Shown in pieces: positions 2,070-57,020 of a DNA stretch of 64,000 nt; within the stretch, counting starts at the first letter, position 1, and each line of letters opens with the position of its first letter. Both the position numbers and the translations under genes were made by a program. Origin of the DNA: Bispira polyomma (Eukaryota); NCBI GenBank assembly GCA_965649765.1, contig OZ287758.1, positions 42,470,001 to 42,534,000 on the forward strand, in the 5' to 3' direction. The notes under the pieces are model-generated. The model worked only from the letters and a program-made list of their open reading frames with translations, was not told the origin of the DNA and searched no databases.

Positions 2070-5000
2070 GTGAGTTTGAGGGTCTGATTGGTTTTAATAT
2101 CTATTAACACATCTTCAACTGGCTTCAATAAGGATACAAATGGGCTGTCTATTTCTTTGAATAATTATGTTATAATAATATCCCCTGTTAAATAACCGAG
2201 TGGTTAGGGAGTTGGTCTGGTGATCACAAGGTCCCCAGTTTGACTCCTGGTTGAGTAGTTGGTCTCTTGACTGTATGGTAACAGGTTCAAATGCTGGCAA
2301 CGCTATAATGGTTATTAGAGGATAACACACGCAGGCAAGATGTAAACTTGCCATTGCTCACAATAATGGAAAATGGAGCATTTCTGTGAATGGATAGGGC
2401 GCTGTATAAATCTGTTATATTATTTTTGTCATTATAATGAACATTTGGCCATGTATTGGAATCATGATTGATAGTTTATCCATTATAATGCTTCACTTTA
2501 TGTCTGGCATCAATAAGATGTGATAAAAATCCACAATATAATTGAATACCCTTCATTATAAATCTACAAATGTATTATAACAGATAATGATTCAGGTGGA
2601 CACTGGAGGGAGGGGGAGGTACACCGACTACAATGTCAGAAACTGTACATAACAGGGACAGTATTCACAAAAGGGCTAAATCAAGATCGATTTAGATCGA
2701 TTATACCTTAGTGCTAGATTTAGGACAATATCTGTGACTACTGACCCACAAGTATATTAGAAAGTAAATACTGATGTATATAGCAAGGGTAAAATTTGAC
2801 AAAATAACTGGAACAACCAGTTAGTATCGACAATACCTTAATATGTTAGAATCATTTGTATTTCTATTTTACATTTTACATTAAAAAGTCCTTTATTAAT
2901 GTGAGGCATCTGCTGAAGCAAAACAACAGCACCAATTAACCAATCATGTAGTCTAAAAACTATAGCCAGGTCGTAGGGCAAGGTGGGGTGATGTACAGGG
3001 CGATAATTAAGAGGGGTAAGCAAGTGGGTTTTACAGAGGTCTTTCCTCTACACATTACAGTGTACAGATACTTAGGGGGGAAATTGATCCATCTAACTCT
3101 TCAGGTCCAGTCCTTTGTAAATAAGAGAAGTCATTGAAAATTTTTATTCATATGTTCAGTTATTTTGTTGCTGTTATGCTTTCAGATTATTAATCTTGAG
3201 GAGGAAGCAACCAACTTTGTTAACATTGATATATCAATCCCAGAAGCGGCTGCAAAAATAGAACTGATCTTTGCGGGGACCTCAAAAACATTTTCAAGAC
3301 TCAGTGAGGTCCAGATCATTATTTGTGATGGTGAGTAAATATTTACAGGTTATAAACTGTTTTAGATGGTAATCTTGTAAGGTGACTCAGTGAAAACTAA
3401 AGTCTCCGATAAAAGCCAAAATTACCATATAACCACAGTAGTTTTAGCCATCATGCGATCTGATTTGTATACCATGTACACTGAAACTGAAAAAGTATTA
3501 ACTGCTGCTGAAAGTATTTTTGTGTGTGACAATTCTTAAGGAAGAAAGTACATACTCACAATTTTTACATGTACTGTATCACTTTAGAGGCATACTTTAA
3601 GTACATAATGTAAGCAGTATATTATCCAACTTGTATGTTTTTATTTTATAATTTTTTGGTAATAAAGTAGTTTTATATAACCCACACCTTTAAAACTTTA
3701 ATTTCATATGCTCTTTTAAAAGAAAGCAACATTACAGTGTAAATAAATTCATCTCACTAACATGTAGGTTTCCAATTTTGTGCCACAAACATGTACAGTG
3801 AAATATTTAGGCCGGGTTAAGTTTTAGGGTGGCACAATTTAAGTAATACTAATTGTCATCACCAACCTTAATCAGCTATTATGTGTGCTTTAGGTTAAGT
3901 TGTGGTAACTTCAGTAAAACAGTAGTTAAGTAAAGGTAACCATACATTTGGGACCTTACATTTTTACCAAAATATTGGATTATGCTAGGAGATCAATATC
4001 AAAGCAGGTTTTTCAAAATTAGTACGTAAACAGTGTATCTAATAAGTTATTAATACATGTGTCAAGATCAGTCGAGGACATATAATAAATAAAATTATTT
4101 GTGCAATAAATAATTATTTGTGCAGGCTTATAATAAAAGCGTATTTTAAGCGTGTATATAATGTGTCTTTCCAATAAAACTACCATGTTTGTAATGTTGA
4201 AAATAAACAATACTTGTATAGATATGTTTATTGGTGTATGTTCACTTGTTCAGTCCAAAACTTTAACAATTTTACAATATGCAAAACCATTCATGCTCAA
4301 AAAATTATATTTGATTCATTGAAAAACATATTAAAATATGTAAAGCTGTGTTTATTTCCTTAATATTAACCATTTATAGTGTTGAGCTATTTGTTAATCA
4401 ATCGTAAGAATCCCAACTTAAGTCACACCTACACAACTGTTTTTAAGTCACGCCCTTTGCTAAGTCTGAGATTGTGGTATGTTCTTTGTGAATGACTGAT
4501 CCTAAGACAAACATTTTTTTTCAAAAGGTTAAGACAAAAGTGAAAGTGAACAATTACATTTTTTATTTTAAGAGACAGATGAACAATATATTATAGCAGA
4601 TTTATATTTCTTTGTATGTCTATCTACAACAACACCAACTGCTACACCAACAGGTACATCAACACCAACACCCATACCAACACCAACTCCAGCACCTACA
4701 CCCATACCATCACCCATACCAACTCCTACTCCAGCACCCGTACCAACTCCTACTCCAGCACCCGTACCCACTCCTACTCCAGCACCCGTACCCACTCCTA
4801 CTCCAGCACCCATACCGACTCCTACTCCAGCACCCACACCCACCCCAACTCCTGCACCTATTTGCCCTAATAAGACCAATCAAATTGAATTAGATTATGA
4901 TAACCTCAGCCAAGGTTCAGTCCGTCTTTCTGTGTCTCCAGTACAAGCTGAAGATGCACTGGACTCTCCAGTGTCAATGTTTGTTATGAACTCTAGTTTA

Positions 5001-8000
5001 GTGACCATTACTGTCACATTTTCACCACCAACCGACCTGAGCTTCATGATGTTTTCTGTGACAAATATTAGCCTCGTCAAATACGACATTTTTCTACAAA
5101 ACAAAGTTATTGTGATGCCTGAAGATGTAAGTTGTTTCACGAGTATTAAATATTTTAATGGTTTCATCATACATTTATTTTCACTTTATAGACATCATTT
5201 AGAATTTATTACCACTCAATATCAAATAATTTTGTACTTTAGCACAGATGATAAATGAAATTGCCCCCTGTACTGGTAGTTATTGTTTTCTATATTTTTA
5301 GACAGAAATTGGTAATACAGGATCCTTTACCAAGATCACAGTGACTCTAGGTGACAGTGCAAAGAAAGTAGAGTCAGTGAGCATTCATCTGCAACAGGCC
5401 AACCTTGACATAGGCGTGATTAAAGATCTTCTGTTTATTGAGTGTGATGGAGATGATGTGCCACCACGTAAGTACATGGCAGTCTTAGATCTAAAAAATA
5501 TGTCACTGTATTTAAGCATATATATTTGCCAAGTATATCTCAGAAACTAACTACATCACACTGTCAAAATTATGCCTTAATGTATCTATGCATGTCAGAT
5601 ATTAAAATTATCCTTTTTCCCTGAAAAATGTTGGTACATAGCCACCTTACATATCAATAATTGATGGTATTTCAGAGTATGTTTAAAAAATCTATCATAC
5701 TTTCAATATGTATTCTTAATGTATCTATCTGTTTGTATACTGAAATGTAATTCTTCCCTTAGTTCTAAATATGTTACTCTATTTGACAAAATATTTAATA
5801 AACGCTTTGTACTATCAAAGTAGACAAATTATAGCTACTTTATCAAATGACTAAATCATCTTAAACTTCCTAAAATACATTTTATGTACTGAAAGTTTGT
5901 AATCATTAAACAGCGAAAGACTGTCCTGCAGAAGAACTAGCTAGATATGATTTTACTGATTTCCCATCAGTCATTGTGAATGTAAACAATGGTGTGGGGT
6001 CTGCTGAAGACGCTCTGTTAAATTCAATGTCTGGATTACAAATCACAACTGGTAGTGGAGAAAACCAGTTGAATGTGACATTCAATGAACCTCTACTCCT
6101 ATCTGGCCTCAGATTCACTACACAGTTTGTGACCAACATGACCGTGACCCTAATTTCTGGATCTGGTTCAGTATCAAGTAAAGTAAGACCCAAGTGTATT
6201 ATTTACTTTGTTCTTATTTGTTTAATGATGGGTTTTCATTGTTTATCTATGTCTCAAATTTTTCATATACAAACTGAGTATACACCAAAATATAAACAGT
6301 ACAACACTTTTGGAAAAACTTAACTAAATATATTTATTTTTAATTCTGAAAACTCAATTGTCTTTTTTTCAATATCATGAATAATATTTGTCATTAAAAG
6401 ACATCATTTACACATCAATAACTGACTGAAATATTTGTAAATATATATTTCAGATAGAGATTTCAGATGAAAATGTTGCTACATCACACCTTGTGTCAAT
6501 ATCTGCTGAATTTCCCCTGATATCAACAATTACATTTTTATTTGAAGAGACAGATGAAGAATATATTATAGCAGATTTATACTTCTTTGTCTGTGTATCT
6601 ACAACAACACCAACACCCGTACCAACTCCTACTCCAGCACCCATACCAACTCCTACAGCAACAGGCACACCCACACCAGCACCCATACCCACTCCTACTC
6701 CAGCACCCGTACCCACTCCTACTCCAGCACCCATACCGACTCCTACTCCAGCACCCGTACCAACTCCTACTCCAGCACCCACACCCACGCCAATTCCTGC
6801 ACCTATTTGCCCTAATAAGACCAATCAAATTGAATTGGATTATGATAACCTCAGCCAAGGTTCAGTCCATCTTTCTGTGTCTCCAGTACAAGCCGAAGAT
6901 GCACTGGACTCTTCAGTGTCAATGTTTGTCATGAACTCTAGTTTAGTGACCATTACTGTCACATTTTCACCACCAACCGACCTGAGCTTCATAATGTTTT
7001 CTGTGACAAATATTAGCCTCGTCAAATACGACATTTTTCTACAAAACAAAGTTATTGTGACGCCTGAAGATGTAAGTTGTTTCACGAGTATTAAATATTT
7101 TAATGGTTTTATCATACATTTATTTTCACTTTATAGACATCATTTAGAATTTATTACCACTCAATATCAAATAATTTTGTACTTTATCACAAATGATAAA
7201 TGAAATTGCCCCCTGTACTGGTAGTTATTGTTTTCTATATTTTTAGACAGAAATTGGTAATACTGGATCCTTTACCAAGATCACAGTGACTCTAGGCGAC
7301 AGTGTAAAGAAAGTAGAGTCAGTGAGCATTCATCTGCAACAGGCCAACCTTGACATAGGCGTGATTAAAGATCTTCTGTTTATTGAGTGTGATGGAGATG
7401 ATGTGCCACCACGTAAGTACATGGCAGTCTTAGATCTAAAAAATATGTCACTGTATGTAAGCATATATATTTGCCAAGTATATCTCAGAAACTAACTACA
7501 TCACACTGTCAAAATTATGCCTTAATGTACCTATGCATGTCAGATAATAAAATTATCCTTTTTCCCTGAAAAATGTTGGTACACAGCCACCTTACATATC
7601 AATAATTGATGGTATTTCAGAGTATGTTTAAAAAATCTATCATACTTTCAATATGTATTCTTAATGTATCTATCTGTTTGTATACTGAAATGTAATTCTT
7701 CCCTTAGTTCTAAGTATGTTACTCTATTTGACAAAATATTTAATAAACGCTTTGTACTATCAATGTAGACAAATTATAGCTACTTTATCAAATGACTAAA
7801 TCATCTTAAACTTCCTAAAATACATTTTATGTACTGAAAGTTTGTAATCATTAAACAGCGAAAGACTGTCCTGCAGAAGAACTAGCTAGATATGATTTTA
7901 CTGATTTCCCATCGGTCATTGTGAATGTAAACAATGGTGTGGGGTCTGCTGAAGACGCTCTGTTAAATTCAATGTCTGGATTACAAATCACAACTGGTAG

Positions 8001-11000
8001 TGGAGAAAACCAGTTGAATGTTACATTCAATGAACCTCTACTCCTATCTGGCCTCAGATTCACTACACAGTTTGTGACCAACATGACCGTGACCCTAATT
8101 TCTGGATCTGGTTCAGTATCAAGCACAGTAAGACCCAAGTGTATTATTTACTTTGTTCTTATTTGTTTAATAATGGGTTTTCATTGTTTATCTATGTCTC
8201 AAATTTTTCATATACAAACTGAGTATACACCAAAATATAAACAGTACAACACTTTTGGAAAAACTTAACTAAATATATTTATTTTTAATTTTGAAAACTC
8301 AATTGTCTTTTTGTATATCATGAATTATATTTGTCATTAAAAGACATCATTTACACATAAATAACTGACTGAAATATTTGTAAATATATATTTCAGATAG
8401 AGATTTCAGATGAAAATGTTGCGACATCACACCTTGTGTCAATATCTGCTGAATTTCCCCTGATATCAACAATTACATTTTTATTTGAAGAGACAGATGA
8501 ACAATATATTATAGCAGATTTATACTTCTTTGTCTGTGTATCTACAACAACACCAACACCTGTACCAACTCCTACTCCAGCACCTACACCCATACCATCA
8601 CCCGTACCAACTCCTACATCAACAGGCACACCCACACCAGCACCTGTTCCAACTCCTACTCCAGCACCCGTACCTACTCCTACTCCAGCACCCGTACCCA
8701 CTCCTACTCCAGCACCCATACCTACTCCTACTCCCGCACCTACACCCATACCATCACCAGTACCCACCCCTACATCAACAGGCACACCCACACCAGCACC
8801 CGTACCAACTCCTACTCCAGCACCCGTACCCACTCCAACTCCAGCACCCGTACCCACTCCTACTCCCGCACCTACACCCATACCATCACCAGTACCAACC
8901 CCTACATCAACAGGCACACCCACACCAGCACCCGTACCAACTCCTACTCCAGCACCTGTACCCACTCCAACTCCAGCACCTATACCCACTCCTACTCCAG
9001 CACCTACACCCATACCATCACCAGTACCAACCCCTACATCAACAGGCACACCCACACCAGCACCCGTACCAACTCCTACTCCAGCACCCGTACCCACTCC
9101 AACTCCAACACCTATACCCACTCCTACTCCCGCACCTACACCCATACCATCACCAGTACCAACCCCTACATCAACAGGCACACCCACACCAGCACCCGTA
9201 CCAACTCCTACTCCAGCACCTGTACCCACTCCAACTCCAGCACCTATACCCACTCCTACTCCAGCACCTACACCCATACCATCACCAGTACCAACCCCTA
9301 CATCAACAGGCACACCCACACCAGCACCCGTACCAACTCCTACTCCAGCACCCGTACCCACTCCAACTCCAGCACCTGTTCCAACCCCTACTCCAGCACC
9401 TACACCCATACCATCACCTGTACCAACCCCTACATCAACAGGCACACCCACACCAGCACCCGTACCAACTCCTACTCCAGCACCCGTACCCACTCCTACT
9501 CCAGCACCCGTACCCACTCCTACTCCAGCACCCATACCGACTCCTACTCCAGCACCCGTACCAACTCCTACTCCAGCACCCACACCCACGCCAATTCCTG
9601 CACCTATTTGCCCTAATAAGACCAATCAAATTGAATTGGATTATGATAACCTCAGCCAAGGTTCAGTCCATCTTTCTGTGTCTCCAGTACAAGCCGAAGA
9701 TGCACTGGACTCTTCAGTGTCAATGTTTGTCATGAACTCTAGTTTAGTGACCATTACTGTCACATTTTCACCACCAACCGACCTGAGCTTCATAATGTTT
9801 TCTGTGACAAATATTAGCCTCGTCAAATACGACATTTTTCTACAAAACAAAGTTATTGTGACGCCTGAAGATGTAAGTTGTTTCACGAGTATTAAATATT
9901 TTAATGGTTTCATCATACATTTATTTTCACTTTATAGACATCATTTAGAATTTATTACCACTCAATATCAAATAATTTTGTACTTTATCACAGATGATAA
10001 ATGAAATTGCCCCCTGTACTGGTAGTTATTGTTTTCTATATTTTTAGACAGAAATTGGTAATACTGGATCCTTTACCAAGATCACAGTGACTCTAGGCGA
10101 CAGTGCAAAGAAAGTAGAGTCAGTGAGCATTCATCTGCAACAGGCCAACCTTGACATAGGCGTGATTAAAGATCTTCTGTTTATTGAGTGTGATGGAGAT
10201 GATGTGCCACCACGTAAGTACATGGCAGTCTTAGATCTAAAAAATATGACACTGTATTTAAGCATATATATTTGCCAAGTATATCTCAGAAACTAACTAC
10301 ATCACACTGTCAAAATTATGCCTTAATGTACCTATGCATGTCAGATAATAAAATTATCCTTTTTCCCTGAAAAATGTTGGTACACAGCCACCTTACATAT
10401 CAATAATTGATGGTATTTCAGAGTATGTTAAAAAATCTATCATACTTTCAATATGTATTCTTAATGTATCTATCTGTTTGTATACTGAAATGTAATTCTT
10501 CCCTTAGTTCTAAGTATGTTACTCTATTTGACAAAATATTTAATAAACGCTTTGTACTATCAATGTAGACAAATTATAGCTACTTTATCAAATGACTAAA
10601 TCATCTTAAACTTCCTAAAATACATTTTATGTACTGAAAGTTTGTAATCATTAAACAGCGAAAGACTGTCCTGCAGAAGAACTAGCTAGATATGATTTTA
10701 CTGATTTCCCATCGGTCATTGTGAATGTAAACAATGGTGTGGGGTCTGCTGAAGACGCTCTGTTAAATTCAATGTCTGGATTACAAATCACAACTGGTAG
10801 TGGAGAAAACCAGTTGAATGTTACATTCAATGAACCTCTACTCCTATCTGGCCTCAGATTCACTACACAGTTTGTGACCAACATGACCGTGACCCTAATT
10901 TCTGGATCTGGTTCAGTATCAAGCACAGTAAGACCCAAGTGTATTATTTACTTTGTTCTTATTTGTTTAATAATGGGTTTTCATTGTTTATCTATGTCTC

Positions 11001-14000
11001 AAATTTTTCATATACAAACTGAGTATACACCAAAATATAAACAGTACAACACTTTTGGAAAAACTTAACTAAATATATTTATTTTTAATTTTGAAAACTC
11101 AATTGTCTTTTTGTATATCATGAATTATATTTGTCATTAAAAGACATCATTTACACATAAATAACTGACTGAAATATTTGTAAATATATATTTCAGATAG
11201 AGATTTCAGATGAAAATGTTGCGACATCACACCTTGTGTCAATATCTGCTGAATTTCCCCTGATATCAACAATTACATTTTTATTTGAAGAGACAGATGA
11301 ACAATATATTATAGCAGATTTATACTTCTTTGTCTGTGTATCTACAACAACACCAACACCTGTACCAACTCCTACTCCAGCACCTACACCCATACCATCA
11401 CCCGTACCAACTCCTACATCAACAGGCACACCCACACCAGCACCTGTTCCAACTCCTACTCCAGCACCCGTACCTACTCCTACTCCAGCACCCGTACCCA
11501 CTCCTACTCCAGCACCCATACCTACTCCTACTCCCGCACCTACACCCATACCATCACCAGTACCCACCCCTACATCAACAGGCACACCCACACCAGCACC
11601 CGTACCAACTCCTACTCCAGCACCCGTACCCACTCCAACTCCAGCACCCGTACCCACTCCTACTCCCGCACCTACACCCATACCATCACCAGTACCAACC
11701 CCTACATCAACAGGCACACCCACACCAGCACCCGTACCAACTCCTACTCCAGCACCTGTACCCACTCCAACTCCAGCACCTATACCCACTCCTACTCCAG
11801 CACCTACACCCATACCATCACCAGTACCAACCCCTACATCAACAGGCACACCCACACCAGCACCCGTACCAACTCCTACTCCAGCACCCGTACCCACTCC
11901 AACTCCAACACCTATACCCACTCCTACTCCCGCACCTACACCCATACCATCACCAGTACCAACCCCTACATCAACAGGCACACCCACACCAGCACCCGTA
12001 CCAACTCCTACTCCAGCACCTGTACCCACTCCAACTCCAGCACCTATACCCACTCCTACTCCAGCACCTACACCCATACCATCACCAGTACCAACCCCTA
12101 CATCAACAGGCACACCCACACCAGCACCCGTACCAACTCCTACTCCAGCACCCGTACCCACTCCAACTCCAGCACCTGTTCCAACCCCTACTCCAGCACC
12201 TACACCCATACCATCACCTGTACCAACCCCTACATCAACAGGCACACCCACACCAGCACCCGTACCAACTCCTACTCCAGCACCCGTACCCACTCCTACT
12301 CCAGCACCCGTACCCACTCCTACTCCAGCACCCATACCGACTCCTACTCCAGCACCCGTACCAACTCCTACTCCAGCACCCACACCCACGCCAATTCCTG
12401 CACCTATTTGCCCTAATAAGACCAATCAAATTGAATTGGATTATGATAACCTCAGCCAAGGTTCAGTCCATCTTTCTGTGTCTCCAGTACAAGCCGAAGA
12501 TGCACTGGACTCTTCAGTGTCAATGTTTGTCATGAACTCTAGTTTAGTGACCATTACTGTCACATTTTCACCACCAACCGACCTGAGCTTCATAATGTTT
12601 TCTGTGACAAATATTAGCCTCGTCAAATACGACATTTTTCTACAAAACAAAGTTATTGTGACGCCTGAAGATGTAAGTTGTTTCACGAGTATTAAATATT
12701 TTAATGGTTTCATCATACATTTATTTTCACTTTATAGACATCATTTAGAATTTATTACCACTCAATATCAAATAATTTTGTACTTTATCACAGATGATAA
12801 ATGAAATTGCCCCCTGTACTGGTAGTTATTGTTTTCTATATTTTTAGACAGAAATTGGTAATACTGGATCCTTTACCAAGATCACAGTGACTCTAGGCGA
12901 CAGTGCAAAGAAAGTAGAGTCAGTGAGCATTCATCTGCAACAGGCCAACCTTGACATAGGCGTGATTAAAGATCTTCTGTTTATTGAGTGTGATGGAGAT
13001 GATGTGCCACCACGTAAGTACATGGCAGTCTTAGATCTAAAAAATATGACACTGTATTTAAGCATATATATTTGCCAAGTATATCTCAGAAACTAACTAC
13101 ATCACACTGTCAAAATTATGCCTTAATGTACCTATGCATGTCAGATAATAAAATTATCCTTTTTCCCTGAAAAATGTTGGTACACAGCCACCTTACATAT
13201 CAATAATTGATGGTATTTCAGAGTATGTTTAAAAAATCTATCATACTTTCAATATGTATTCTTAATGTATCTATCTGTTTGTATACTGAAATGTAATTCT
13301 TCCCTTAGTTCTAAGTATGTTACTCTATTTGACAAAATATTTAATAAACGCTTTGTACTATCAATGTAGACAAATTATAGCTACTTTATCAAATGACTAA
13401 ATCATCTTAAACTTCCTAAAATACATTTTATGTACTGAAAGTTTGTAATCATTAAACAGCGAAAGACTGTCCTGCAGAAGAACTAGCTAGATATGATTTT
13501 ACTGATTTCCCATCGGTCATTGTGAATGTAAACAATGGTGTGGGGTCTGCTGAAGACGCTCTGTTAAATTCAATGTCTGGATTACAAATCACAACTGGTA
13601 GTGGAGAAAACCAGTTGAATGTTACATTCAATGAACCTCTACTCCTATCTGGCCTCAGATTCACTACACAGTTTGTGACCAACATGACCGTGACCCTAAT
13701 TTCTGGATCTGGTTCAGTATCAAGCACAGTAAGACCCAAGTGTATTATTTACTTTGTTCTTATTTGTTTAATAATGGGTTTTCATTGTTTATCTATGTCT
13801 CAAATTTTTCATATACAAACTGAGTATACACCAAAATATAAACAGTACAACACTTTTGGAAAAACTTAACTAAATATATTTATTTTTAATTTTGAAAACT
13901 CAATTGTCTTTTTGTATATCATGAATTATATTTGTCATTAAAAGACATCATTTACACATAAATAACTGACTGAAATATTTGTAAATATATATTTCAGATA

Positions 14001-17000
14001 GAGATTTCAGATGAAAATGTTGCGACATCACACCTTGTGTCAATATCTGCTGAATTTCCCCTGATATCAACAATTACATTTTTATTTGAAGAGACAGATG
14101 AACAATATATTATAGCAGATTTATACTTCTTTGTCTGTGTATCTACAACAACACCAACACCTGTACCAACTCCTACTCCAGCACCTACACCCATACCATC
14201 ACCCGTACCAACTCCTACATCAACAGGCACACCCACACCAGCACCTGTTCCAACTCCTACTCCAGCACCCGTACCTACTCCTACTCCAGCACCCGTACCC
14301 ACTCCTACTCCAGCACCCATACCTACTCCTACTCCCGCACCTACACCCATACCATCACCAGTACCCACCCCTACATCAACAGGCACACCCACACCAGCAC
14401 CCGTACCAACTCCTACTCCAGCACCCGTACCCACTCCAACTCCAGCACCCGTACCCACTCCTACTCCCGCACCTACACCCATACCATCACCAGTACCAAC
14501 CCCTACATCAACAGGCACACCCACACCAGCACCCGTACCAACTCCTACTCCAGCACCTGTACCCACTCCAACTCCAGCACCTATACCCACTCCTACTCCA
14601 GCACCTACACCCATACCATCACCAGTACCAACCCCTACATCAACAGGCACACCCACACCAGCACCCGTACCAACTCCTACTCCAGCACCCGTACCCACTC
14701 CAACTCCAGCACCTGTTCCAACCCCTACTCCAGCACCTACACCCATACCATCACCTGTACCAACCCCTACATCAACAGGCACACCCACACCAGCACCCGT
14801 ACCAACTCCTACTCCAGCACCCGTACCCACTCCTACTCCAGCACCCGTACCCACTCCTACTCCAGCACCCATACCGACTCCTACTCCAGCACCCGTACCA
14901 ACTCCTACTCCAGCACCCACACCCACGCCAATTCCTGCACCTATTTGCCCTAATAAGACCAATCAAATTGAATTGGATTATGATAACCTCAGCCAAGGTT
15001 CAGTCCGTCTTTCTGTGTCTCCAGTACAAGCCGAAGATGCACTGGACTCTTCAGTGTCAATGTTTGTCATGAACTCTAGTTTAGTGACCATTACTGTCAC
15101 ATTTTCACCACCAACCGACCTGAGCTTCATAATGTTTTCTGTGACAAATATTAGCCTCGTCAAATACGACATTTTTCTACAAAACAAAGTTATTGTGACG
15201 CCTGAAGATGTAAGTTGTTTCACGAGTATTAAATATTTTAATGGTTTCATCATACATTTATTTTCACTTTATAGACATCATTTAGAATTTATTACCACTC
15301 AATATCAAATAATTTTGTACTTTATCACAGATGATAAATGAAATTGCCCCCTGTACTGGTAGTTATTGTTTTCTATATTTTTAGACAGAAATTGGTAATA
15401 CTGGATCCTTTACCAAGATCACAGTGACTCTAGGCGACAGTGCAAAGAAAGTAGAGTCAGTGAGCATTCATCTGCAACAGGCCAACCTTGACATAGGCGT
15501 GATTAAAGATCTTCTGTTTATTGAGTGTGATGGAGATGATGTGCCACCACGTAAGTACATGGCAGTCTTAGATCTAAAAAATATGACACTGTATTTAAGC
15601 ATATATATTTGCCAAGTATATCTCAGAAACTAACTACATCACACTGTCAAAATTATGCCTTAATGTACCTATGCATGTCAGATAATAAAATTATCCTTTT
15701 TCCCTGAAAAATGTTGGTACACAGCCACCTTACATATCAATAATTGATGGTATTTCAGAGTATGTTTAAAAAATCTATCATACTTTCAATATGTATTCTT
15801 AATGTATCTATCTGTTTGTATACTGAAATGTAATTCTTCCCTTAGTTCTAAGTATGTTACTCTATTTGACAAAATATTTAATAAACGCTTTGTACTATAA
15901 ATGTAGACAAATTATAGCTACTTTATCAAATGACTAAATCATCTTAAACTTCCTAAAATACATTTTATGTACTGAAAGTTTGTAATCATTAAACAGCGAA
16001 AGACTGTCCTGCAGAAGAACTAGCTAGATATGATTTTACTGATTTCCCATCAGTCATTGTGAATGTAAACAATGGTGTGGGGTCTGCTGAAGACGCTCTG
16101 TTAAATTCAATGTCTGGATTACAAATCACAACTGGTAGTGGAGAAAACCAGTTGAATGTGACATTCAATGAACCTCTACTCCTATCTGGCCTCAGATTCA
16201 CTACACAGTTTGTGACCAACATGACGGTGACCCTAATTTCTGGATCTGGTTCAGTATCAAGCACAGTAAGACCCAAGTGTATTATTTACTTTGTTCTTAT
16301 TTGTTTAATAATGGGTTTTCATTGTTTATCTATGTCTCAAATTTTTCATATACAAACTGAGTATACACCAAAATATAAACAGTACAACACTTTTGGAAAA
16401 ACTTAACTAAATATATTTATTTTTAATTTTGAAAACTCAATTGTCTTTTTGTATATCATGAATTATATTTGTCATTAAAAGACATCATTTACACATAAAT
16501 AACTGACTGAAATATTTGTAAATATATATTTCAGATAGAGATTTCAGATGAAAATGTTGCGACATCACACCTTGTGTCAATATCTGCTGAATTTCCCCTG
16601 ATATCAACAATTACATTTTTATTTGAAGAGACAGATGAACAATATATTATAGCAGATTTATACTTCTTTGTCTGTGTATCTACAACAACACCAACACCTG
16701 TACCAACTCCTACTCCAGCACCTACACCCATACCATCACCCGTACCAACTCCTACATCAACAGGCACACCCACACCAGCACCTGTTCCAACTCCTACTCC
16801 AGCACCCGTACCTACTCCTACTCCAGCACCCGTACCCACTCCTACTCCAGCACCCATACCTACTCCTACTCCCGCACCTACACCCATACCATCACCAGTA
16901 CCAACCCCTACATCAACAGGCACACCCACACCAGCACCTGTACCAACTCCTACTCCAGCACCCGTACCCACTCCAACTCCAGCACCTGCTCCAACCCCTA

Positions 17001-20000
17001 CTCCAGCACCTACACCCATACCATCACCAGTACCAACCCCTACATCAACAGGCACACCCACACCAGCACCTGTACCAACTCCTACTCCAGCACCCGTACC
17101 AACTCCTACTCCAGCACCCGTACCAACTCCTACTCCAGCACCTGTACCAATCCCTACTCCAGCACCTACACCCATACCATCACCTGTGCCAACTCCTACT
17201 CCTGTACCCGTACCAACTCCTACTCCAGCACCCGTACCCACTCCTACTCCACTCATACCATCACCCGTGCCAACTCCTACATCAACAGGCACGCCCACAC
17301 CAGCACCCGTACCAACTCCTACTCCAGCACCCGTACCCACTCCAACTCCAGCACCTGTTCCAACCCCTACTCCAGCACCTACACCCATACCATCACCTGT
17401 ACCAACCCCTACATCAACAGGCACACCCACACCAGCACCCGTACCAACTCCTACTCCAGCACCCGTACCAACTCCTACTCCAGCACCCGTACCAACTCCT
17501 ACTCCAGCACCTGTACCAATCCCTACTCCAGCACCTACACCCATACCATCACCTGTGCCAACTCCTACTCCTGCACCCGTACCAACTCCTACTCCAGCAC
17601 CCGTACCCACTCCTACTCCACTCATACCATCACCCGTGCCAACTCCTACATCAACAGGCACGCCCACACCAGCACCTGTACCAACTCCTACTCCAGCACC
17701 CGTACCTAATCCTACTCCAGCACCCGTACCCACTCCTACTCCAGCACCTGTACCAACCCCTACTCCAGCACCTACACCCATACCATCACCTGTACCAACC
17801 CCTACTCCAGCACCTACACCCATACCATCACCTGTACCAACCCCTACTCCAGCACCTACACCCATACCATCACCTATACCAACTCCTACTCCAGCACCCG
17901 TACCCACTCCTACTCCAGCACCCATACCCACTCCTACTCCAGCACCTACACCCATACCATCACCTGTGCCAACTCCTACTCCTGTACCCGTACCAACTCC
18001 TACTCCAGCACCCGTACCCACTCCTACTCCACTCATACCATCACCCGTGCCAACTCCTACATCAACAGGCACGCCCACACCAGCACCCGTACCAACTCCT
18101 ACTCCAGCACCCGTACCCACTCCAACTCCAGCACCTGTTCCAACCCCTACTCCAGCACCTACACCCATACCATCACCTGTACCAACCCCTACATCAACAG
18201 GCACACCCACACCAGCACCCGTACCAACTCCTACTCCAGCACCCGTACCAACTCCTACTCCAGCACCCGTACCAACTCCTACTCCAGCACCTGTACCAAT
18301 CCCTACTCCAGCACCTACACCCATACCATCACCTGTGCCAACTCCTACTCCTGCACCCGTACCAACTCCTACTCCAGCACCCGTACCCACTCCTACTCCA
18401 CTCATACCATCACCCGTGCCAACTCCTACATCAACAGGCACGCCCACACCAGCACCTGTACCAACTCCTACTCCAGCACCCGTACCTAATCCTACTCCAG
18501 CACCCGTACCCACTCCTACTCCAGCACCTGTACCAACCCCTACTCCAGCACCTACACCCATACCATCACCTGTACCAACCCCTACTCCAGCACCTACACC
18601 CATACCATCACCTGTACCAACCCCTACTCCAGCACCTACACCCATACCATCACCTATACCAACTCCTACTCCAGCACCCGTACCCACTCCTACTCCAGCA
18701 CCCATACCCACTCCTACTCCAGCACCTACACCCATACCATCACCAGTACCAACCCCTACATCAACAGGCACACCCACACCAGCACCCGTACCAACTCCTA
18801 CTCCAGCACCCGTACCCACTCCTACTCCAGCACCTGTTCCAACCCCTACTCCAGCACCTACACCCATACCATCACCTGTACCAACCCCTACATCAACAGG
18901 CACACCCACACCAGCACCCGTACCAACTCCTACTCCAGCACCCATACCAACTCCTACTCCAGCACCTGTACCAATCCCTACTCCAGCACCTACACCCATA
19001 CCATCACCTGTGCCAACTCCTACTCCTGCACCCGTACCAACTCCTACTCCAGCACCCGTACCCACTCCTACTCCACTCATACCATCACCCGTGCCAACTC
19101 CTACATCAACAGGCACGCCCACACCAGCACCCATACCAACTCCTACTCCAGCACCCGTACCCACTCCAACTCCAGCACCTGTTCCAACCCCTACTCCAGC
19201 ACCTACACCCATACCATCACCTGTACCAACCCCTACTCCAGCACCTACACCCATACCATCACCTGTACCAACCCCTACTCCAGCACCTACACCCATACCA
19301 TCACCTGTTCCAACTCCTACTCCAGCTCCTACACCCATACCATCACCTGTACCAACCCCCACTCCAGCACCTGCACCAATACCATCACCTATACCAACTC
19401 CTACACCAACACCCACACCCACACCTACACCCACACCCACACCTACACCAACACCTACACCCACACCAACACCCACACCTACACCTACACCAACACCTAC
19501 ACCTACACCTACACCCACTCCAACACCCACACCAACCCCCACACCAACACCTACACCAACACCCACACCTACACCCACCCCAACACCCACCCCTACACCC
19601 ATCCCAACACCAGTACCAACTCCTACATCAACAGGTACACCCACACCAACACCTGTACCCACTCCTACTCCAGAACCAACAACCACACTTGGTGGTCCAG
19701 GTATATTTATATTTGTTCTTATGTCATCGATATATGAAATATGATATTAATGTATAAACTTGTTATGTATGTATGTATATATATATATACAATTAAACAT
19801 TCCTTTTAACAACTTTAAACTAACTGTAATATGTTGAACATGAAACTGCATGTGATTTGTTACTAATTTCTAGACACCTATTTATCTACAGGTAGGGGGT
19901 GCCCGATAGGATTTATTCGAGAACGTTTAGATTTTGATATGAGAACAGCATTCACTACGCTCAAAGTCTTCGATGCTATAGATGTACTTGTGGATGCTTC

Positions 20001-23000
20001 AGCTGCCCTTGAGGGGTCGTTCAGTGCCTTTTCAACCATAAATGGTATGGATAACCATAATAAGAATAATTAGTATTTATAGTCACATGTGTTATGTAAT
20101 CAACTTGTAAAGATCTTGAACAATTACATTTTTTGTCGGTTGAATGAACTGGCCATTTTAATCCACATCTTGTGTTTTCATCTTAGTTTATAAATATTCC
20201 TGAATTTAGATGAACATAAATAATTATGTGATGCAAGACTAGTCCTTTAATTTTTCTTTCTGTAATATGTTATAAACTTTTAGGGAATGTTTATACCAGA
20301 GATATATTCATTCACTTTATTCCAGTTTTACACCAATAATTAAAGGGCATTTGACCTTTGACATAGTCCTGACATATCTAACACCAATTATTTTTTACCT
20401 GACGTGTGTAAAAGACTTAACTATTTAGCGAAAACAACTGTTGAATATGTAAAGGTAATAAACATATTGAAAAGAAAAATCTCAAATGGTATTGAGTTTT
20501 CTTCCTTTGTGCGTCACTCGTGTAACTTTCATTTGGTGTCCTCTCTATCAGTGTGTCAACTTCAACTGCAGAATAAATAAGTCACATCATAATTTCCTAT
20601 TATTCTTACAACAGGTATTACAGGCACACTGAGTCCCAATGTAAAGGTGGCATCAATCGGATTTTCAATCAAGAGTGCTGCTGACGTTGATGTAGTGATT
20701 GCATTAGGTCTATTGTCCAAAGATGTGAAAGTGAGTATTAAACATTAACACAACTAGTTACATGTGAGTTGTATTATAATTAGTATGGTACAGAAAACTG
20801 ACTTAAGGAATAACACACAACAAAGCATGGTATATGATAAGTTTTACCATGATTGGAGGCGTAGTACGGCAAGGCAATGCTCCTACATTTGCTTCATTCC
20901 TGGTGTATATATTGCAAAATCACGTTATTGATGGAATTATCATGTAATGCCCTTTAATTATTGGTGGAAAAAAATTCTGTGTACTAAAATGTGATTTTGT
21001 AGGGTGTTACAAGTTTTAAGCTGCATGACATTAATTATTAGCAGCCAAAGGGCTGTTAGGCCCGAGGACTGTTAATGATTAATGAAGTAGTGCTAAAAAC
21101 TGTAACGCCTGTACAAAATCACATTATTACTATTATTATGAAATAAAATTAAAAGCTGAAAACTACTGTAAATCCTGATATTTTACTGTTTATTATATAA
21201 ACAATAAACAACTAACAAATTAACTAATCCTAACAAACTAAACAAGTCTTCTCATTGATCCAGCAAATTTAAAAACTGATTTTACAGAAATGGCGTATAT
21301 GAACCGTTAGACCGAATAATCTGTCCTTATTTAGCGAGATTCCTTGATGTTATATTGATGGCAGACTCACGAAATGGGTCAGCGGTCTTGTTGTAGGCCT
21401 GGATTTTACTATATTTTAGAACCAATCAGAATAATCGGCGACACAAGCTTGTTATGTTAGTATGTGAAAAAAAACATATGAATCGACTTCAATAATGAAA
21501 TGATAGAATATTTTAGTAGCCTGTTCATTATATGTGTGCTTTGTGAACTTGCACTGTTTGACACAAGACTAGCTCTTAAATCTTACTTATGTAATATTTT
21601 TATAACTTTGAGGAATGTGTTACCTGAATCTGAGGATAATTACATTACAATTAGGGTTAGTTCCCTCACAATTTTACCTGATATATATATATACTACATT
21701 GTATTCCTATTATATCGTCTCAACATCTATTCATAAAAATTGCAGAAAATGTGAATGATGTGTCATTTTGCGTTTTTACGTGCCACTCTGCTATAAATAT
21801 AATGTTTATCTCCAGACACATTGGAGATGTTTCCTATTATTTCAATAAAAACATAAGGTTTTTTGGGCCGAAAAATTCTAAACAAAGTCATAATTTACAG
21901 CAACTGGGGAGAAAAAAATAAAATTCTGTGGGGTGAAATTTTTTTCAGTACTTTTTATTGAATTTTTCCTTCCCAAAACAGGCTTTTCCATTGAAAACAA
22001 TAGGCAAATAACTGAAAATATTTACCTTATTCAAAGAGGTTTTAAAAGAGCCTGGTGTGACATAGTGTTTTTTTTTATATATTTTTGTTCAACATGTTAA
22101 TGAACCTTTTCATAAAAATTTTTTTTTGAAAATCTGTGGTGTAAAAAAAATGGTAGCGAACAACCTTAATCAGGAAACTCCGGAATTTCATACATTACTG
22201 TGTTCGAGATATTTCATTGCAATATTATCCCAAAACCCAAATCATATGCAACTGTTAGCATAAATAAAAATACAAACTGGTAACAAAATAAGAGCTTTAT
22301 GACAGATGCCTCATTGGTGTAATGGTAACACACTTACCACCCTGTTTGTCGTGGACTAGAGCCATGGCATGTATGTGTGAGAAAATCTAAAAATAGACGT
22401 GGTTAAGCCCGGTGGTTTGCAGATCTGATTCACTTTACTAGTGAATGGCCTCCATGTTCAACTAAAACAACATTATAACGTCTGTAAACAACTTAAATAA
22501 CTTGGCTATGTTGTCAACTAATAAACAGGCTTGCTACTGCTAGGATTCGATTCTGGGTTGTCATGGATCTTGAAATTAATAGTCCAGTACACTGACAGTT
22601 GAGCTAAAAGGGGGAACCCCTGAAGTCCAATGTGTTTAATGCACAGATAATACACGTCTCTAGATGTCTCTGTTTTCATATGCTGTATATGTTATATCCT
22701 TATTTGTTTCTTCTTAGCTTACTGGTCTGAGCTCTGACTCGTATACACCCTTCACCATCCCAATCTCCTCATCTGATTCAAATTCTAACGGGTTTGATAT
22801 TCTTGGGAATCTGATGATAAAAGACCTCTATGTCGATGTTTGTGTACCTTCTGGGCCCCCACCAGTAGGAAGCACCCCTTGTAAGTAACATTTGCAGTGG
22901 TCAGACTGTATTTACTGTAAATGTCAGGACAATGTTAACTACTGGTTTTAAGAAAGCTCTTATTTAGTAGTACAAGATATTGGTTGCTTTCCCATTCAAT

Positions 23001-26000
23001 GCTTAACAAGATCACATACTCTTTGACATTTATAATTATGGTTCAAGTCTAGAGAGATAATTTAAAGTTTTACTCCTAATCATGATATCTAAGTAAATAC
23101 GGTGCAGAAAGACTTTTTTTATGGATAATAATTTTCAGCTACTTTAGGTAATGAGTCGGGAGAGTGAAAATTAATTCCCTCTTTTACAAAAAATAGCCAA
23201 TAGTTAAAATTAATTATAGTGATTTTTTTTCTTCAAAAATTGTAAGTTAATGAAAAATTTGATTATAATAATTTAAAGTGTATCAATTTAATTTTCAGCT
23301 CCACTATGTCCAAGTAACCTACAGGATATTGTTATAGTGGCAGCTGACGACATTGCTAATGGTGGTTCACGGGTTGAAGCTGTGTTCAACAATGGATCAG
23401 AGACATCTGCCAAAGATATCTGGTTTTTGTCCGGTAGCCAGATAGAAACCTCATCTGACATATCAATACTCATTAAATTTAGTTTCAATGAAGTCATAGC
23501 TGATATTAAAATGGTCCTGGAAGGGTTTTCCGATGTTCAGCTAAGTTTCTTTAATGATGACATTGGTCAGATTGACGTTGCTAGCGTAAGTATTGGTCTA
23601 TTATATATGAATCAATGTTTTTTGTAAAAGCTTTGCACGGTTTGTTAGTTTACTTTTTGGTACAGATAAATATTCTCAAAACATGTCATAAAGTCGGTAG
23701 TCATAAATAAAAATTTGATGATTTTCTAAAAAAAAAAACATTTAAAAATAAATTGCTGTTGTAGAAGGCATTGTAATCACTATTTTTTGATGATGTAACA
23801 AATTTGTCTTGCAGTTTGAAATAAATTGTATGTACAATGCCTTCAATCAGTAGTGTCCTTCCTTTCTATTTGTTTACATGGGATTCTCTAGGCCTCTGTT
23901 GCCTAATGGTTAGAGTGTCAGACTTTGGATCTCAGGTATCTTGAAAGCCAGGGTTCGATCCTTGCCTGGAGACTGTACCCTTAGACAAGGTGCTTTACAC
24001 AAAGTTGTCCCTCTCTACCCAGGTGTAGAAATGGGTAGCTGGTTGCTAATAGATGTTAGTGTTTGTGTGCCGTATGTGACAGCATGGCTAGTATGCTCCC
24101 TTAGGGAGCTGAGACTGAACAATTGGTTGACAAGTGAAAGAACCCAGGCTGGGGGTGCAAACTGTAAAGTCGACTGAGACCTCAATAACGGTGATATCAG
24201 ACTATAAAGCTGACATTTACATTTTGCATTTACATTACTGTTAACTAAATAAACTTTAGGTAAAATAATGGTCGGGAGTGTGCATTATAGTTTGTCTGAA
24301 CAAATGAGTTGGACTTAACAAATCAGCTTTCAGTATAACTATGTCATCCTGTAGGATACGTGAGAGTCATGCTCGATCAGTTTTCAAAGCCCACTCTCTG
24401 ACTCTAATTAATTGACTATCTCAAGGAAGCCAAGCATGATCACCATCATCATGAATGTCTATGGTGTCTCACCAAATCACCACTTCACAGGAAGTGGTAC
24501 CAAACCATCATCCACCAAGTCATCATGCCTTTTGTTAATACAATACGGTATTATGTGTCGATGAACTCTTTATAAAGTGCAGTCAAAGGGACTTTCGAGA
24601 GTGTGCGATTTATGTGTTTCCATCGGTATTTTTGTATTGCTATGTCTAATTCCAGGAAACTACAGATGATGCGTCAATTCAATCAATTGTGGTTTTTGAC
24701 TCTAGTGTCATACCTCCAGTACCTATAAAGGATATAGTCATACAGCTTACCAGCACTGAAATTGCTCTGAACAAGATTAAGAACCTGTTGATAACTGTGT
24801 GCGGTGAGACACCAACAACAACTGTGGCTCCAGGTATACATATTGAACTGTTTGTAATTTACATATAATTTTATACTCCGTATCTCCCTGCATCATTTAG
24901 GGACTCAACATGCTAGTTTATTTTGTTATTGACTGCACAAGTAGAACAAAACCAGGACTAGTAACCGATATTCCCCTATGAGTAGACATAGGTTTGAGGA
25001 TGCCGATTAATCAATTTCCTTTGGCCTTCAACTAGGTACAGAACTTAGGCACCAGGCTAGGTTTAAACTCAGGTCTTCTGTAATACTAAGCATTAGCAGA
25101 TCCAGAATCGGAAGTGGATCCAGTTCCATAATCTATTTTGAACATAAATGTTACCATTTGGTTGTTAGACATGTGTTTGCTGCAATAAAAATTTTTTTTA
25201 AAAGATAAGGGGATAGTTCTAACCACCCGAGCTCACCCCTTGGTCCGCTTATGCTAAGTTGAGAATGTTTCCCATTAAATCATTGTGGTATATAAAGCGG
25301 GTACTTGCAACTATTAATATTGATGTATATATATGGCTCTAATTCAATATATTGAGTGTTGTTGGCATCATTAAGTTATGCATAAATGTGTTTGTGGCCT
25401 TATTGGCCTATTGCTCAGACTGTCTGGTTTCAGATCTGATAGTCCAGATTTTATCCTTGCTGCTGGCCTAGAGATTGTACCCTCCTTAGGCAAGGTACTT
25501 CACAGAAAGTTGTCCATGTCCACTCAGGTGTATAAATGGGTACCTGGATGCCAATGGATGTTAGTTTTGTTTGATATATGTGGCAGCATAGCTAGTATGC
25601 TTCCTGAATGAGCTCAAAGTGAACACTTGATTGATAAGTGGAATAACCCAGGCTGGGGGTGTAAATTGTAAAGTCTGATAAGACCTCAATGAAGGTAATA
25701 TCAGACTTTAAACCTACACATATTTACATAAATACTGTACAACAGATAATGTAAAAATATTATACCCACCAGAATGTTATAATTTGTCAACAAAGTTAAA
25801 TTATTTTTTCATACTATTTATTTGTCCAACAGATATTTTCTGATATAATTTAGAAATTAATTTCTGCCTTTGATGTGTATGTATCACATTTAAAGTAATA
25901 CAGTAGGACCCCTATTATCTAAACATGCTAGGACATCATGTCAATTTGAGACAGTAAAAACGTGTTTGCAAATTTAAATTCCGATAATTGTAGTTCGGAT

Positions 26001-33438: not shown

Positions 33439-33454
<16 letters not shown>

Positions 33455-33472
<18 letters not shown>

Positions 33473-33621
33473 AGGTCAGACCACTAATGGAAGGTCATTT
33501 GCACTTCTCCTTTGCACAACAATAGCCTACTGTGATGATATATATATATATGTACAAGGTCAGACCACTAATGGAAGGTCATTTGCACTTCTCCTTTGCA
33601 CAACAATAGCCCACTGTGATG
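33455..33621 (+). repeat. Direct tandem duplication, 2 x ~83 bp, each starting with (TA)n
   Basis: tgtacaaggtcagaccactaatggaaggtcatttgcacttctcctttgcacaacaatagcc occurs twice. Confidence 0.95.
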
Positions 33622-36860: not shown

Positions 36861-37118
36861 GGGGCCGCGGTGGCCTAGTGGTTAGCAAGCATTGTGCTTC
36901 ACAATCACTGGTCTCTCACCTCTGGGCGGCATGAGTTCGAATCCTGCCAATGCCTATGTGGGAAAGGTGGTAGTTCCTTACTGTGGGCCGCTGGTTTCTC
37001 TGCAGAACTTTGACCGACTGTATGCAGTGTTTCCTCCAGGATTTCCAACTACCCGTCCCAATATAACCCACTAAAAGGTACTACAGTGGACGTTAAATAT
37101 CCAAATTCCAAAAAAAAA
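36861..37118 (+). mobile_element. Full-length tRNA-derived SINE (family 3) with 15-bp TSD
   Basis: ggggccgcggtggcctagtggttag (A-box), gagttcgaatcc (B-box), A-tail; TSD tgtaaa(c/t)agactggt at 36846-36860 and 37119-37133. Confidence 0.9.
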
Positions 37119-45054: not shown

Positions 45055-45300
45055 GGGGCTGCGGTGGCCTAGTGGTTAGCAAGCATTGCACTTCACAATC
45101 ACTGGTCTCTCACCTCTGGGCGGCGTGAGTTCGAATCCCGTCGATGCCTATGTGGGTGGTAGCTCCTTACTGTGGGCCGCTGGTTTCGCTGCAGAACCTT
45201 GATCGACTGTATGCAGTGTTTCCTCCAGCATTCCTAACTACCCGTCCCAATATAACCTACTAAAAGGTACTAGAGTGGACGTTAAATATCCAAATTCAAA
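45055..45300 (+). mobile_element. Second full-length copy of SINE family 3 with 15-bp TSD
   Basis: Highly similar to 36861-37118; TSD ttctac(g/a)ccattcta at 45040-45054 and 45301-45315. Confidence 0.9.
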
Positions 45301-56009: not shown

Positions 56010-57020
56010 CACATACCGGAGCCGGTGGATACATTGGATTACACTTCGTCACGCTGCCTAAAAAGCTTGCCTTGGAGTAATTTTAGCCTCATTTTGAAAA
56101 ACAAGATGGCCGCCAAGGGCATTTCTTTGATAATAATCAGGCTTTTAACTGTGTCTGTTTCTCAGCTGTAGAAGGTTGAATCTCTTTTTGGGTGATATGT
56201 TTAACTGATATATATGTCATGTATCAGCATGCAGACATTTGACCCTGAATCTTCTCACTCAAGGTCATCAACAGAATGCCAAATTACCCCAAGTAACTGA
56301 TTTTGGCAAAACTTAAAAGTGCCTATTTCTTGCATAATTTTGGTTTTAGAGGTTTGGGATTTCAAACCAACCCTTAGGAAATCATGAGCAGGGAATCTTT
56401 TCATGTACTTACTTTTGACCTTGGGCCTCTCCTTCAAGGTCAAACAGGGATGGCCAAACCTTAAAGTGCCTATATCTCGTTTATTTTTGGTCAAGCAGGT
56501 TTTGGATGTGAAACCAACCTATAGAAAATCATGGGCTGGGAATTTTTGGATGTGCTCAGATTTGACCTTGAATCCCTCGTTCAAGGTCAAATGTGGATGG
56601 CTAAACTTAAAAGTGCCTATATATCGCTTATTAGTGGTCCTAGAGGATTGGAATATTTAAACCAACCTGTAGGAAATGAAGGCCTGGGAATCTTTTGATG
56701 TGGTCCGATTTGACCTTAGGCCCCTCGTTCAAGGTCAGTCTTAATCAAACTTAAAAATGCCTATATCTCACTTATTATTGGTTGTAGAGGTTTGGGATGT
56801 AAAATCAACTTATAAGAAATCATAGGCTGGTAATCTTTTGCTGTGGTCAGATTTTTCCTTGGACTCCTCGTGCAAGGTCAAACAGGTACGCCAAACTATA
56901 AACTGCCTATATCACACTTAGTATTGGTCCTAAGGGATTGCAATGTGAAACCCATTTAAGACTTTAGCATAAATGCTATTGGGGATCATAGGCTTCTAGC
57001 TTCGGTGCAAGCTAGGGTGC
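56010..57020 (+). mobile_element. HINE-like element carrying ~5 internal ~147-bp tandem repeats and a 3' hairpin
   Basis: Shares its 5' part with 49172-49680; the tgcctat anchor recurs at spacings of 147, 147, 144 and 146 bp; hairpin ctagctt-cggtgc-aagctag at 56996-57015. Confidence 0.7.

Follow-up and report, generated by a model that had tools for sequence, protein, structure and literature searches.

Tandem arrays of exon-plus-intron units within a single gene are well known, and the array described here is not a new kind of system. As far as the parts of the published accounts used here go, the kringle IV type 2 (KIV-2) VNTR of human LPA has a two-exon unit of ~5.55 kb that is polymorphic and reaches up to ~40 copies (PMC7613587; PMC11462820), and its exons are 98-100% identical between units (PMC7613587). 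In the same partial sense, the Schistosoma mansoni mucin SmPoMuc contains genomic repeats of exon and intron that are >93% identical, and simple repeats were proposed to start the exchange between them (PMC2576457). The Argiope MaSp2 and flagelliform spidroins are described as having iterated homogenised introns (mean 97.6%), with some units of two exons and two introns (PMC9779670). Finally, the excerpts on abalone VERL, the egg-coat receptor for lysin, describe internal repeats that are >95% homogenised, diverged edge repeats, a polymorphic length (~20 vs 22) and repeats that adjoin without introns (PMC2704960).

We analysed a window of 64,000 nucleotides from Bispira polyomma, in which a block of three exons, namely B, C and a fused A exon, occurs with its introns as five near-identical tandem copies within one predicted mucin gene. 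Like LPA KIV-2, the array repeats a multi-exon unit together with its introns and is flanked by diverged older paralogous domains; its units run head-to-tail, the reading frame is kept, and the introns diverge between units as little as the exons do. However, the LPA protein is unrelated, and a fusion exon joined through a minisatellite is not described in the LPA accounts used here. SmPoMuc, in the part of its account used, differs in having a single small exon per unit and intronic microsatellites, not coding PT, as the proposed triggers, while the spidroins, which share units of several exons and introns, are presented there as purely low-complexity silk repeats in which globular domains are absent. 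A preliminary description had found the locus reminiscent of concerted evolution in gamete-recognition receptors such as VERL. The pattern of homogenised internal repeats bears this out, but VERL repeats lack introns whereas each unit here has three, nothing points to gamete recognition, and we found no sequence or functional link between VERL and this gene. The features are as follows (positions in the window unless stated).

1946 to 2069, + strand: exon D0a, middle of domain D0, AG/GT bounded and in frame; the first exon of D0 lies upstream of the window (contig 42469538-42469694)
3186 to 3330, + strand: exon D0b, end of domain D0, phase-1 donor, from AG/GT-based exon joining
4349 to 4541, + strand: R1, ~190-bp piece of an old dispersed repeat, from sequence comparison
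4549 to 4626, + strand: stub of domain-B end, left edge of array homology; candidate in-frame acceptors give an exon start at 4573, 4579, 4597 or 4600
4573 to 5126, + strand: exon A1 (predicted start), with stub, 78-codon PT and domain-A start
4855 to 6636, + strand: unit 1 body, with domain-A start, intron, B1 (5302-5467), intron, C1 (5914-6182), intron and the domain-B end of A2
6454 to 7071, + strand: fusion exon A2, with domain-B end, 68-codon PT and domain-A start; followed by B2 (7247-7412) and C2 (7859-8127)
8397 to 11196, + strand: A3-B3-C3 block, with A3 8397-9872 (354-codon PT), B3 10048-10213 and C3 10659-10927
11197 to 13997, + strand: A4-B4-C4 block, copy of the preceding 2800 bp save one homopolymer base, with A4 11197-12672, B4 12848-13013 and C4 13460-13728
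13998 to 16534, + strand: A5-B5-C5 block, with A5 13998-15209 (266-codon PT), B5 15385-15550 and C5 15997-16265
16535 to 19700, + strand: A6, with native-type domain-B end, ~1006-codon PT and phase-1 donor
19892 to 27243, + strand: diverged domains D1-D3, with exons 19892-20044, 20615-20730 and 22718-22880 (D1), 23299-23585 and 24656-24833 (D2), 26210-26493 and 27099-27243 (D3)

When exons were joined at AG/GT sites, 25 predicted exons from 1946 to 27243 gave 4090 codons with 0 stops. The residues include 1070 P and 755 T, with long Pro/Thr/Ser tandem tracts. No candidate for the first exon emerged from a simple scan of the upstream 41 kb, and the last exon was likewise not found. The site search of the array returned five acceptors and donors each for B and for C, five domain-A-start donors, five full A acceptors (A2-A6) and six PT starts, and each of the three intron types occurs five times. 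D0b is also in frame with C1, so that splicing could leave out A1 and B1.

We compared the PT-free bodies of the five units (U1-U5; 1754-1757 bp, 865 exon and 892 intron columns). U1 differs from U2-U5 by 13-16 exon (1.50-1.85%) and 14-16 intron (1.57-1.79%) positions, and U2-U5 differ among themselves by 0-5 exon and 1-5 intron positions (divergence <=0.6%), which confirms the near-identity first noticed for B, C and the three introns. Private variants number 25 in U1, 4 in U2 and 2 in U5. Between U1 and U3, 9/199 synonymous and 6/653 nonsynonymous sites differ (Fisher p 0.002), and this synonymous excess is the pattern expected of a gene in use. With four informative sites, four gametes appear in 3/6 pairs, all through one site, and only 1/4 sites conflicts with a tree, so that lasting homogenisation is barely told apart from a recent burst. 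The flanking domains D0-D3 had been called deeply diverged; first halves are indeed only 12-26% identical to D3, but D0 is not unique, as two more copies of it, with exon identities of 97-99% and 82-95%, lie directly upstream of the window.

The count of five has to be considered together with the assembly. U3 and U4 are a single homopolymer base apart over 2800/2801 bp, including identical 1065-nt PT tracts, and might be a single unit entered twice, or the assembly might have strung together units from two haplotypes, giving a true count that is 3-4 or haplotype-dependent. Contig depth was available from three contig sets of one study (X1, X2 and X3), which may be the assembly's own sample. 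With the left flank only as baseline, the rough ratio of cassette depth to median flank depth was 5.3 in X1, 4.7 in X2 and 3.0-6.9 in X3, and a joint going back 1879 bases appeared in 3/3 runs. The X2 flank depth of ~5 is a third of that of the upstream-paralogue contigs (15-26), against which the cassette reaches only ~1.5x; the X2 and X3 depths permit fewer copies. Contig depth roughly fits ~5 copies but is ambiguous, as the ratio is not a copy number, and the depth check shows, as a rough measure, no sign of the gross expansion about which the preliminary description had cautioned. On the other side, the private variants and distinct PT lengths indicate at least four distinct units in the assembly, the X1 ratio is 5.3, and there are no N gaps in 214 kb. 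We consider an assembly effect improbable, and it would touch the count, not the existence of the array.

The A exons are mosaics. Read from the PT start, both A3 and A5 run in register with A6 over 305 nt (2 mismatches) and with A1 over just 14 nt. Counted back from their 3' end, the colinear stretch is 143 nt (7 mismatches) against A1 and 0 nt against A6. The corresponding stretches for A2 are 41 nt and 129 nt. The internal A exons are hybrids of domain-B end, PT and domain-A start, as first noticed, with a switch from A6-type to A1-type sequence that falls inside the PT minisatellite, and A6 does lack the domain-A start. Two further points of that description need amending: the hybrids are not only internal, since the A1 stub and the domain-B end of A3-A6 share 93.6% identity, and the right-hand homology does not stop at 16690 but extends ~305 nt into the A6 PT, to ~16986. 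The fused exons end like A1 and the upstream copies described below, without the terminal PT run and tail of A6.

Upstream of the window, an older triplication contains two older copies of stub, PT and donor (Y'). Both consist of R1, stub and PT, end in a phase-1 donor as A6 does, and are followed by R2, a second R copy that is 78-79% like R1. Their stubs are 90-91% identical to the native domain-B end, and the first ~60 nt of the A1 PT resemble these copies, unlike A2-A6. Judged by sequence, the left PT is an old, incomplete copy of an A6-type exon and shares 76 bp of unique flanking sequence with it. In the second upstream unit, none of the four phase-1 acceptors in the stub keeps Y' in frame, so that Y' may often be non-coding; the pyrimidine count is 13/17 for the first acceptor of A1 and 11/17 for each Y' copy. 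R is part of a dispersed repeat with matches at 10+ places (65-79%), the bases after R2 resemble, by eye, the end motif of other repeat copies, and R1 and R2 likely mark the insertion point of the stray exon copy. R adjoins the left edge of the array homology, but as neither the units nor A6 contain a copy and the junction falls ~45 bp before the end that other repeat copies reach, we rejected a boundary set by a transposon, whether through repeat-to-repeat recombination or a transposon-end event.

A probably orthologous domain-A exon elsewhere, P0009, is 55/93 identical (E 4e-37) with the same end point, although it may be a close paralogue. In its protein sequence the Cys is preceded by F/Y/L/S residues and not by PT, so the domain-A start exon was likely free of PT in its native form. 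An AG lies a few codons before the Cys in the four other domain-start exons of the window, in four compared upstream and in the first exon of D0; domain A is the only one without it. The P0009 locus was not found by a metagenome scan, and searching for homologues of the domain-A start and of the domain-B end gave nothing, which is weak evidence. In the genome assembly, domain-A starts are only these five (9/9 candidates scored). A paralogue on another contig, contig C3, has 20 cassette copies, no fused exons, and PT in separate exons.

Based on these observations, we suggest as the probable origin a five-copy intragenic array that was founded by a PT crossover between paralogous minisatellites and multiplied by unit-wide unequal exchange. 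The ancestral layout would have been D0-X-B-C-Y, where X is a domain-A start with its own acceptor and no PT, and Y is a domain-B end with PT and donor, today A6. The 3' part of Y (stub, PT and donor), which is Y', would then have been copied into the D0-X intron, landing in a relic of the dispersed repeat with a ~190-bp flanking duplication. The block of Cys-rich module, D0 and Y' would have been triplicated, leaving two copies upstream of the window, and in the third the loss of the Y'-X intron would have produced A1, using acceptors latent in the old coding stub. Crossover of A1 with Y within PT would have made the first exon of domain-B end, PT and domain-A start, and more unequal exchange the five units, with PT lengths altered by slippage or misaligned exchange. 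The direction of the A1 and crossover steps could also be the other one, with A1 arising from Y' recombining with an exon already fused.

An identical mosaic would result if the fusion came first: X-B-C-Y would have been duplicated in tandem, loss of the Y-X intron would have fused the exon without a PT crossover, and A1 would have arisen later from Y' and a fused exon by exchange within PT that deleted the first unit, so that PT crossover trimmed rather than founded the array. The A1 stub does have several bases in common with the native copies that are missing in the upstream Y' copies. However, this order requires more steps, and the A1/Y'-like ends of the fused exons speak against it; we regard it as unlikely. 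The preliminary description had instead proposed unequal crossover between PT tracts native to two different exons, with PT exchange still driving changes in domain number. The position of the switch and the unequal PT lengths of the units (68, 354, 354 and 266 codons in A2, A3, A4 and A5) agree with exchange between two PT tracts, but the tracts are not independent: the left one has a domain-B stub attached, older copies of it that end in a donor lie upstream, and P0009 is without PT. Nor do the data support PT as a general driver: the contig C3 paralogue got to 20 copies with no fused exon, so amplification does not require PT fusion, and the 1.75 kb of unique homology per unit is enough for exchange once the first duplication is made. 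As to origin, two native tracts are already largely refuted, and we hold this explanation to be very unlikely.

The founding duplication of such arrays is usually erased, and here the likely intermediates persist side by side, namely donor-ended Y' upstream, fused A1, native A6 and an unfused orthologous exon elsewhere. A rather speculative extension of the crossover origin makes the PT exon a portable recombination seed. Its 3' half, made up of the domain stub with its latent in-frame acceptors, the minisatellite and the donor, would be copied upstream, enter the transcript immediately as a symmetric exon and so set the bounds of later domain-array expansion, and this would recur across the mucin family; if true, it would explain where arrays of this family begin and end.

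The product is predicted to be a secreted mucus-type protein. In the Pfam scan of nine exon peptides no family exceeded the cut-off (two weak rows lay below it), and the exon pieces gave no match to ZP; VERL repeats have the ZP-N fold. A PDB sequence search with the alignment labelled A1 returned 0 matches to E 5, the atlas search with the first exon of D3 only unnamed clusters, under 0.9, and the profile-search rows P0003, P0011, P0012 and P0013 look like chance repeat matches. The second exon of the upstream Cys-rich module, searched alone, gave no Pfam family above cut-off and no usable atlas match; this module may resemble a Ly6/three-finger domain. A partial literature search found nothing on this gene, which does not imply its absence from print. 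The database model of Mytilus californianus mucin-2-like (XP_052090877.1, P0008), compared as protein only, has near-identical Cys-to-Cys domains of ~130 aa between Thr-rich spacers; it differs in its Thr/Ser-rich unique-repeat spacers and TSP1 tail, and its link to this gene is weak (profile E 1.4e-4, 11 stretches; hhalign probability 16%). The model of one of its domains is a galactose-binding-domain-like sandwich (pLDDT 90.8), with a CBM as best fold match (Z 15.4, rmsd 2.4, 123 aligned). The half-domain model of our gene, whose domains are split by introns, reached pLDDT 63 and had no fold match at E 0.001. The domains are likely discoidin/CBM32-like (galactose-binding-domain-like), and the product would be an extended O-glycosylated chain in which more units mean more binding-type modules per molecule. 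The five units here and 20 on contig C3 point to a mucin family with fast-changing domain number, useful for work on mucus or matrix proteins.

The predicted gene model and motif counts gave the exon order D0a, D0b, A1-B1-C1 to A5-B5-C5, A6 and then seven exons of D1-D3, the diverged downstream domains, and the 25 AG/GT-bounded exons form 4090 codons with 0 stops. The five-copy array of the preliminary description was thus recovered. The coding Pro/Thr minisatellite tracts (PT) of A1 to A6 comprise 78, 68, 354, 354, 266 and 1006 codons, respectively; higher-order repeats of 369 and ~780 bp were observed inside the A6 tract (window 17206-18700). When we compared the units U1-U5 on their PT-free bodies (865 exon and 892 intron columns), U1 diverged from the other units by 1.5-1.9% in exons and 1.6-1.8% in introns, and divergence among U2-U5 was at most 0.6%. 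The introns are about as alike as the exons. Between U1 and U3, 9 synonymous changes at 199 sites were found versus 6 nonsynonymous changes at 653 sites (p 0.002); a CpG is made or broken by 6 of these 15 changes, which may explain the higher divergence at synonymous sites than in introns. Three of the four informative sites group U1 with U5 and one groups U1 with U2, which hints at exchange among units, and a recent serial burst would fit nearly as well as long homogenisation.

In the assembly (1.04 Gb, 75 contigs), at least four units are distinct, U3 and U4 being nearly identical (a single homopolymer base in 2800 bp). The stretch is also present in three contig sets, X1-X3, all from one study, and these cover the introns, indicating that the sets are DNA; the runs may come from the assembly's own sample. 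Among the 24 contig pieces listed (10,038 further), the depth baseline was taken from flank pieces without other letters (5 for X1, 4 for X2 and 5 for X3), leaving aside four pieces that had other letters as well as one X1 piece over D0a that also occurs in an upstream copy. The cassette-to-flank contig depth ratio, which is not equal to copy number, was 5.3 (X1), 4.7 (X2) and 3.0-6.9 (X3). A joint reaching back 1879 bases was found in 3 of 3 runs, and the X2 flank depth was one third of that of the upstream-paralogue contigs. We conclude that the array is real and of an ordinary kind.

The PT tracts of A1 and A6 have 14 nt in common at the start and 0 at the end. From the PT start onwards, the first 305 nt of A3 and A5 are colinear with A6, and their final 143 nt with A1. 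The left side of the internal A exons is thus of A6 type and their right side of A1 type. The switch falls within the minisatellite, where the crossover had been placed. A1 itself opens with 78 bp of domain-B end, 93.6% identical to A3-A6. Upstream lies an older triplicated block of two Cys-rich exons, three exons of D0 (the diverged upstream domain) and an exon-like Y', composed of a domain-B stub, PT and a phase-1 donor.

Older triplication and Y' copies
G000:C11:42,434,700-42,474,860 (L014-L017 and window start): three copies of the older block formed by Cys-rich module, D0 and PT exon
G000:C11:42,447,735-42,448,313 and 42,462,077-42,462,462: Y' copies, upstream of the window

Exons of the triplication are more conserved than introns; copies II and III (the window's own) are 97-99% identical in exons, and copy I is 82-95% identical to these. 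The D0 and Cys-rich exons (15/15) have AG/GT ends and join the window exons in frame, giving under predicted splicing 4906 codons with Y'(I) and 4723 without it, with 0 stops either way. Four phase-1 acceptors of the Y'(I) stub lead into an open frame, and Y'(II) is frameshifted. A tandem ~106-bp repeat (100% alike; L015, G000:C11:42,446,551-42,446,892) begins at the copy I D0b donor region and may represent a splice donor in repeated form. A direct repeat R of ~190 bp (78-80% alike), a member of a dispersed repeat, lies on both sides of Y', and the bases 3' of the right R copy resemble by eye the end motif of other dispersed-repeat copies. These sequences suggest that Y' arose when the 3' half of the A6-type exon was inserted by a templated route, with flanking duplication. 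Since the PT start of A1 resembles Y', A1 appears to combine the third Y' copy with the domain-A start in one exon.

In the other domain-start exons examined, the acceptor lies a few codons ahead of the first Cys, and domain A alone among the starts examined runs on directly from PT. Searching the assembly for domain-A starts gave 5 matches, each of them within the array, and none was unfused. P0009, known here as a protein from another assembly, shares 59% identity and the end point with the domain-A start, and F/Y/L/S residues, not PT, precede its Cys; an acceptor probably lies at its domain start. P0015 is a near-copy whose domain-A-start ORF differs at 2 residues, and the two are either allelic or products of a separate duplication in another species. 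On the simplest reading, the ancestral domain-A start exon X would have been without PT, and A1 would have formed through loss of the intervening Y'-X intron.

It had further been proposed that PT may drive changes in domain number, and related loci bear on this.

Related loci of the domain family
G000:C3:40,379,964-40,441,357 (L029-L033), minus: paralogous domain and PT gene, multi-exon cassette present 20 times at a period of ~2.5 kb
G000:C3:40,459,800-40,480,000 (L034-L036), minus: second array, different PT-type exon, period ~3 kb, continuing beyond the end of the stretch examined
G000:C11:42,326,600-42,393,400 (L025-L018): additional exons of this family farther upstream, from one gene or several, in older duplicated pairs 78-96% alike, PT tracts 88-767 codons

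The first C3 paralogue has its 20 copies of domain-start exon and flanks with PT placed in separate exons; over the ~790 bp used for comparison 9 copies are identical, and 3 others form a subgroup with 10% divergence. The Mytilus californianus mucin-2-like model XP_052090877.1 has near-identical domains separated by Thr-rich spacers. Amplification is a habit of this mucin-type gene family. PT crossover would account for the founding and edges of the present array but not for amplification as such.

LPA KIV-2 (PMC7613587), SmPoMuc (PMC2576457) and spidroins (PMC9779670) are likewise described as arrays in which exons and introns are repeated with homogenised introns. The standard explanation for such arrays is unequal crossing over (PMC5100051). 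The suggested analogy with VERL applies to the pattern, but VERL repeats are described as being without introns (PMC2704960). A literature search of partial coverage found no paper on a minisatellite-made chimeric exon or on discoidin mucins of molluscs. We moderately favor a sequence of ectopic Y' copy, A1 fusion and founding by PT crossover, followed by ordinary unit-wide unequal exchange, and the origin of this array is unusually legible.

Pfam and PDB sequence searches gave no named family or structure. A profile built from eight first-half exons of the domains matched 14 proteins, the sole named animal match being the Mytilus protein (E 1.4e-4). One of its domains, folded with 12 first-half rows as alignment (pLDDT 90.8), matches the galactose-binding-domain-like sandwich: Foldseek gave E 1e-6, with a DOC domain and CBM32 as matches, and VIA gave Z 15.4 with rmsd 2.4 and 123 aligned. 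The link from this protein to the present domains is weak (hhalign probability 16%). A common fold gives no function, and sugar binding by the domains is a guess. The predicted product of this partial gene model is likely a long, O-glycosylated protein of mucus or matrix in which binding-type modules recur.

Other repeats in the window
33454-33621: tandem repeat, 84 bp x2 (98%)
54707-55074: tandem repeat, 75 bp x4.3
56304-56958: tandem repeat, 147 bp x4.3
2200-2330, 23961-24222, 25463-25729, 36861-37111 and 45055-45300: SINE-like dispersed repeats

Contig depth was very high at window 2192-2355, around the first SINE-like repeat.
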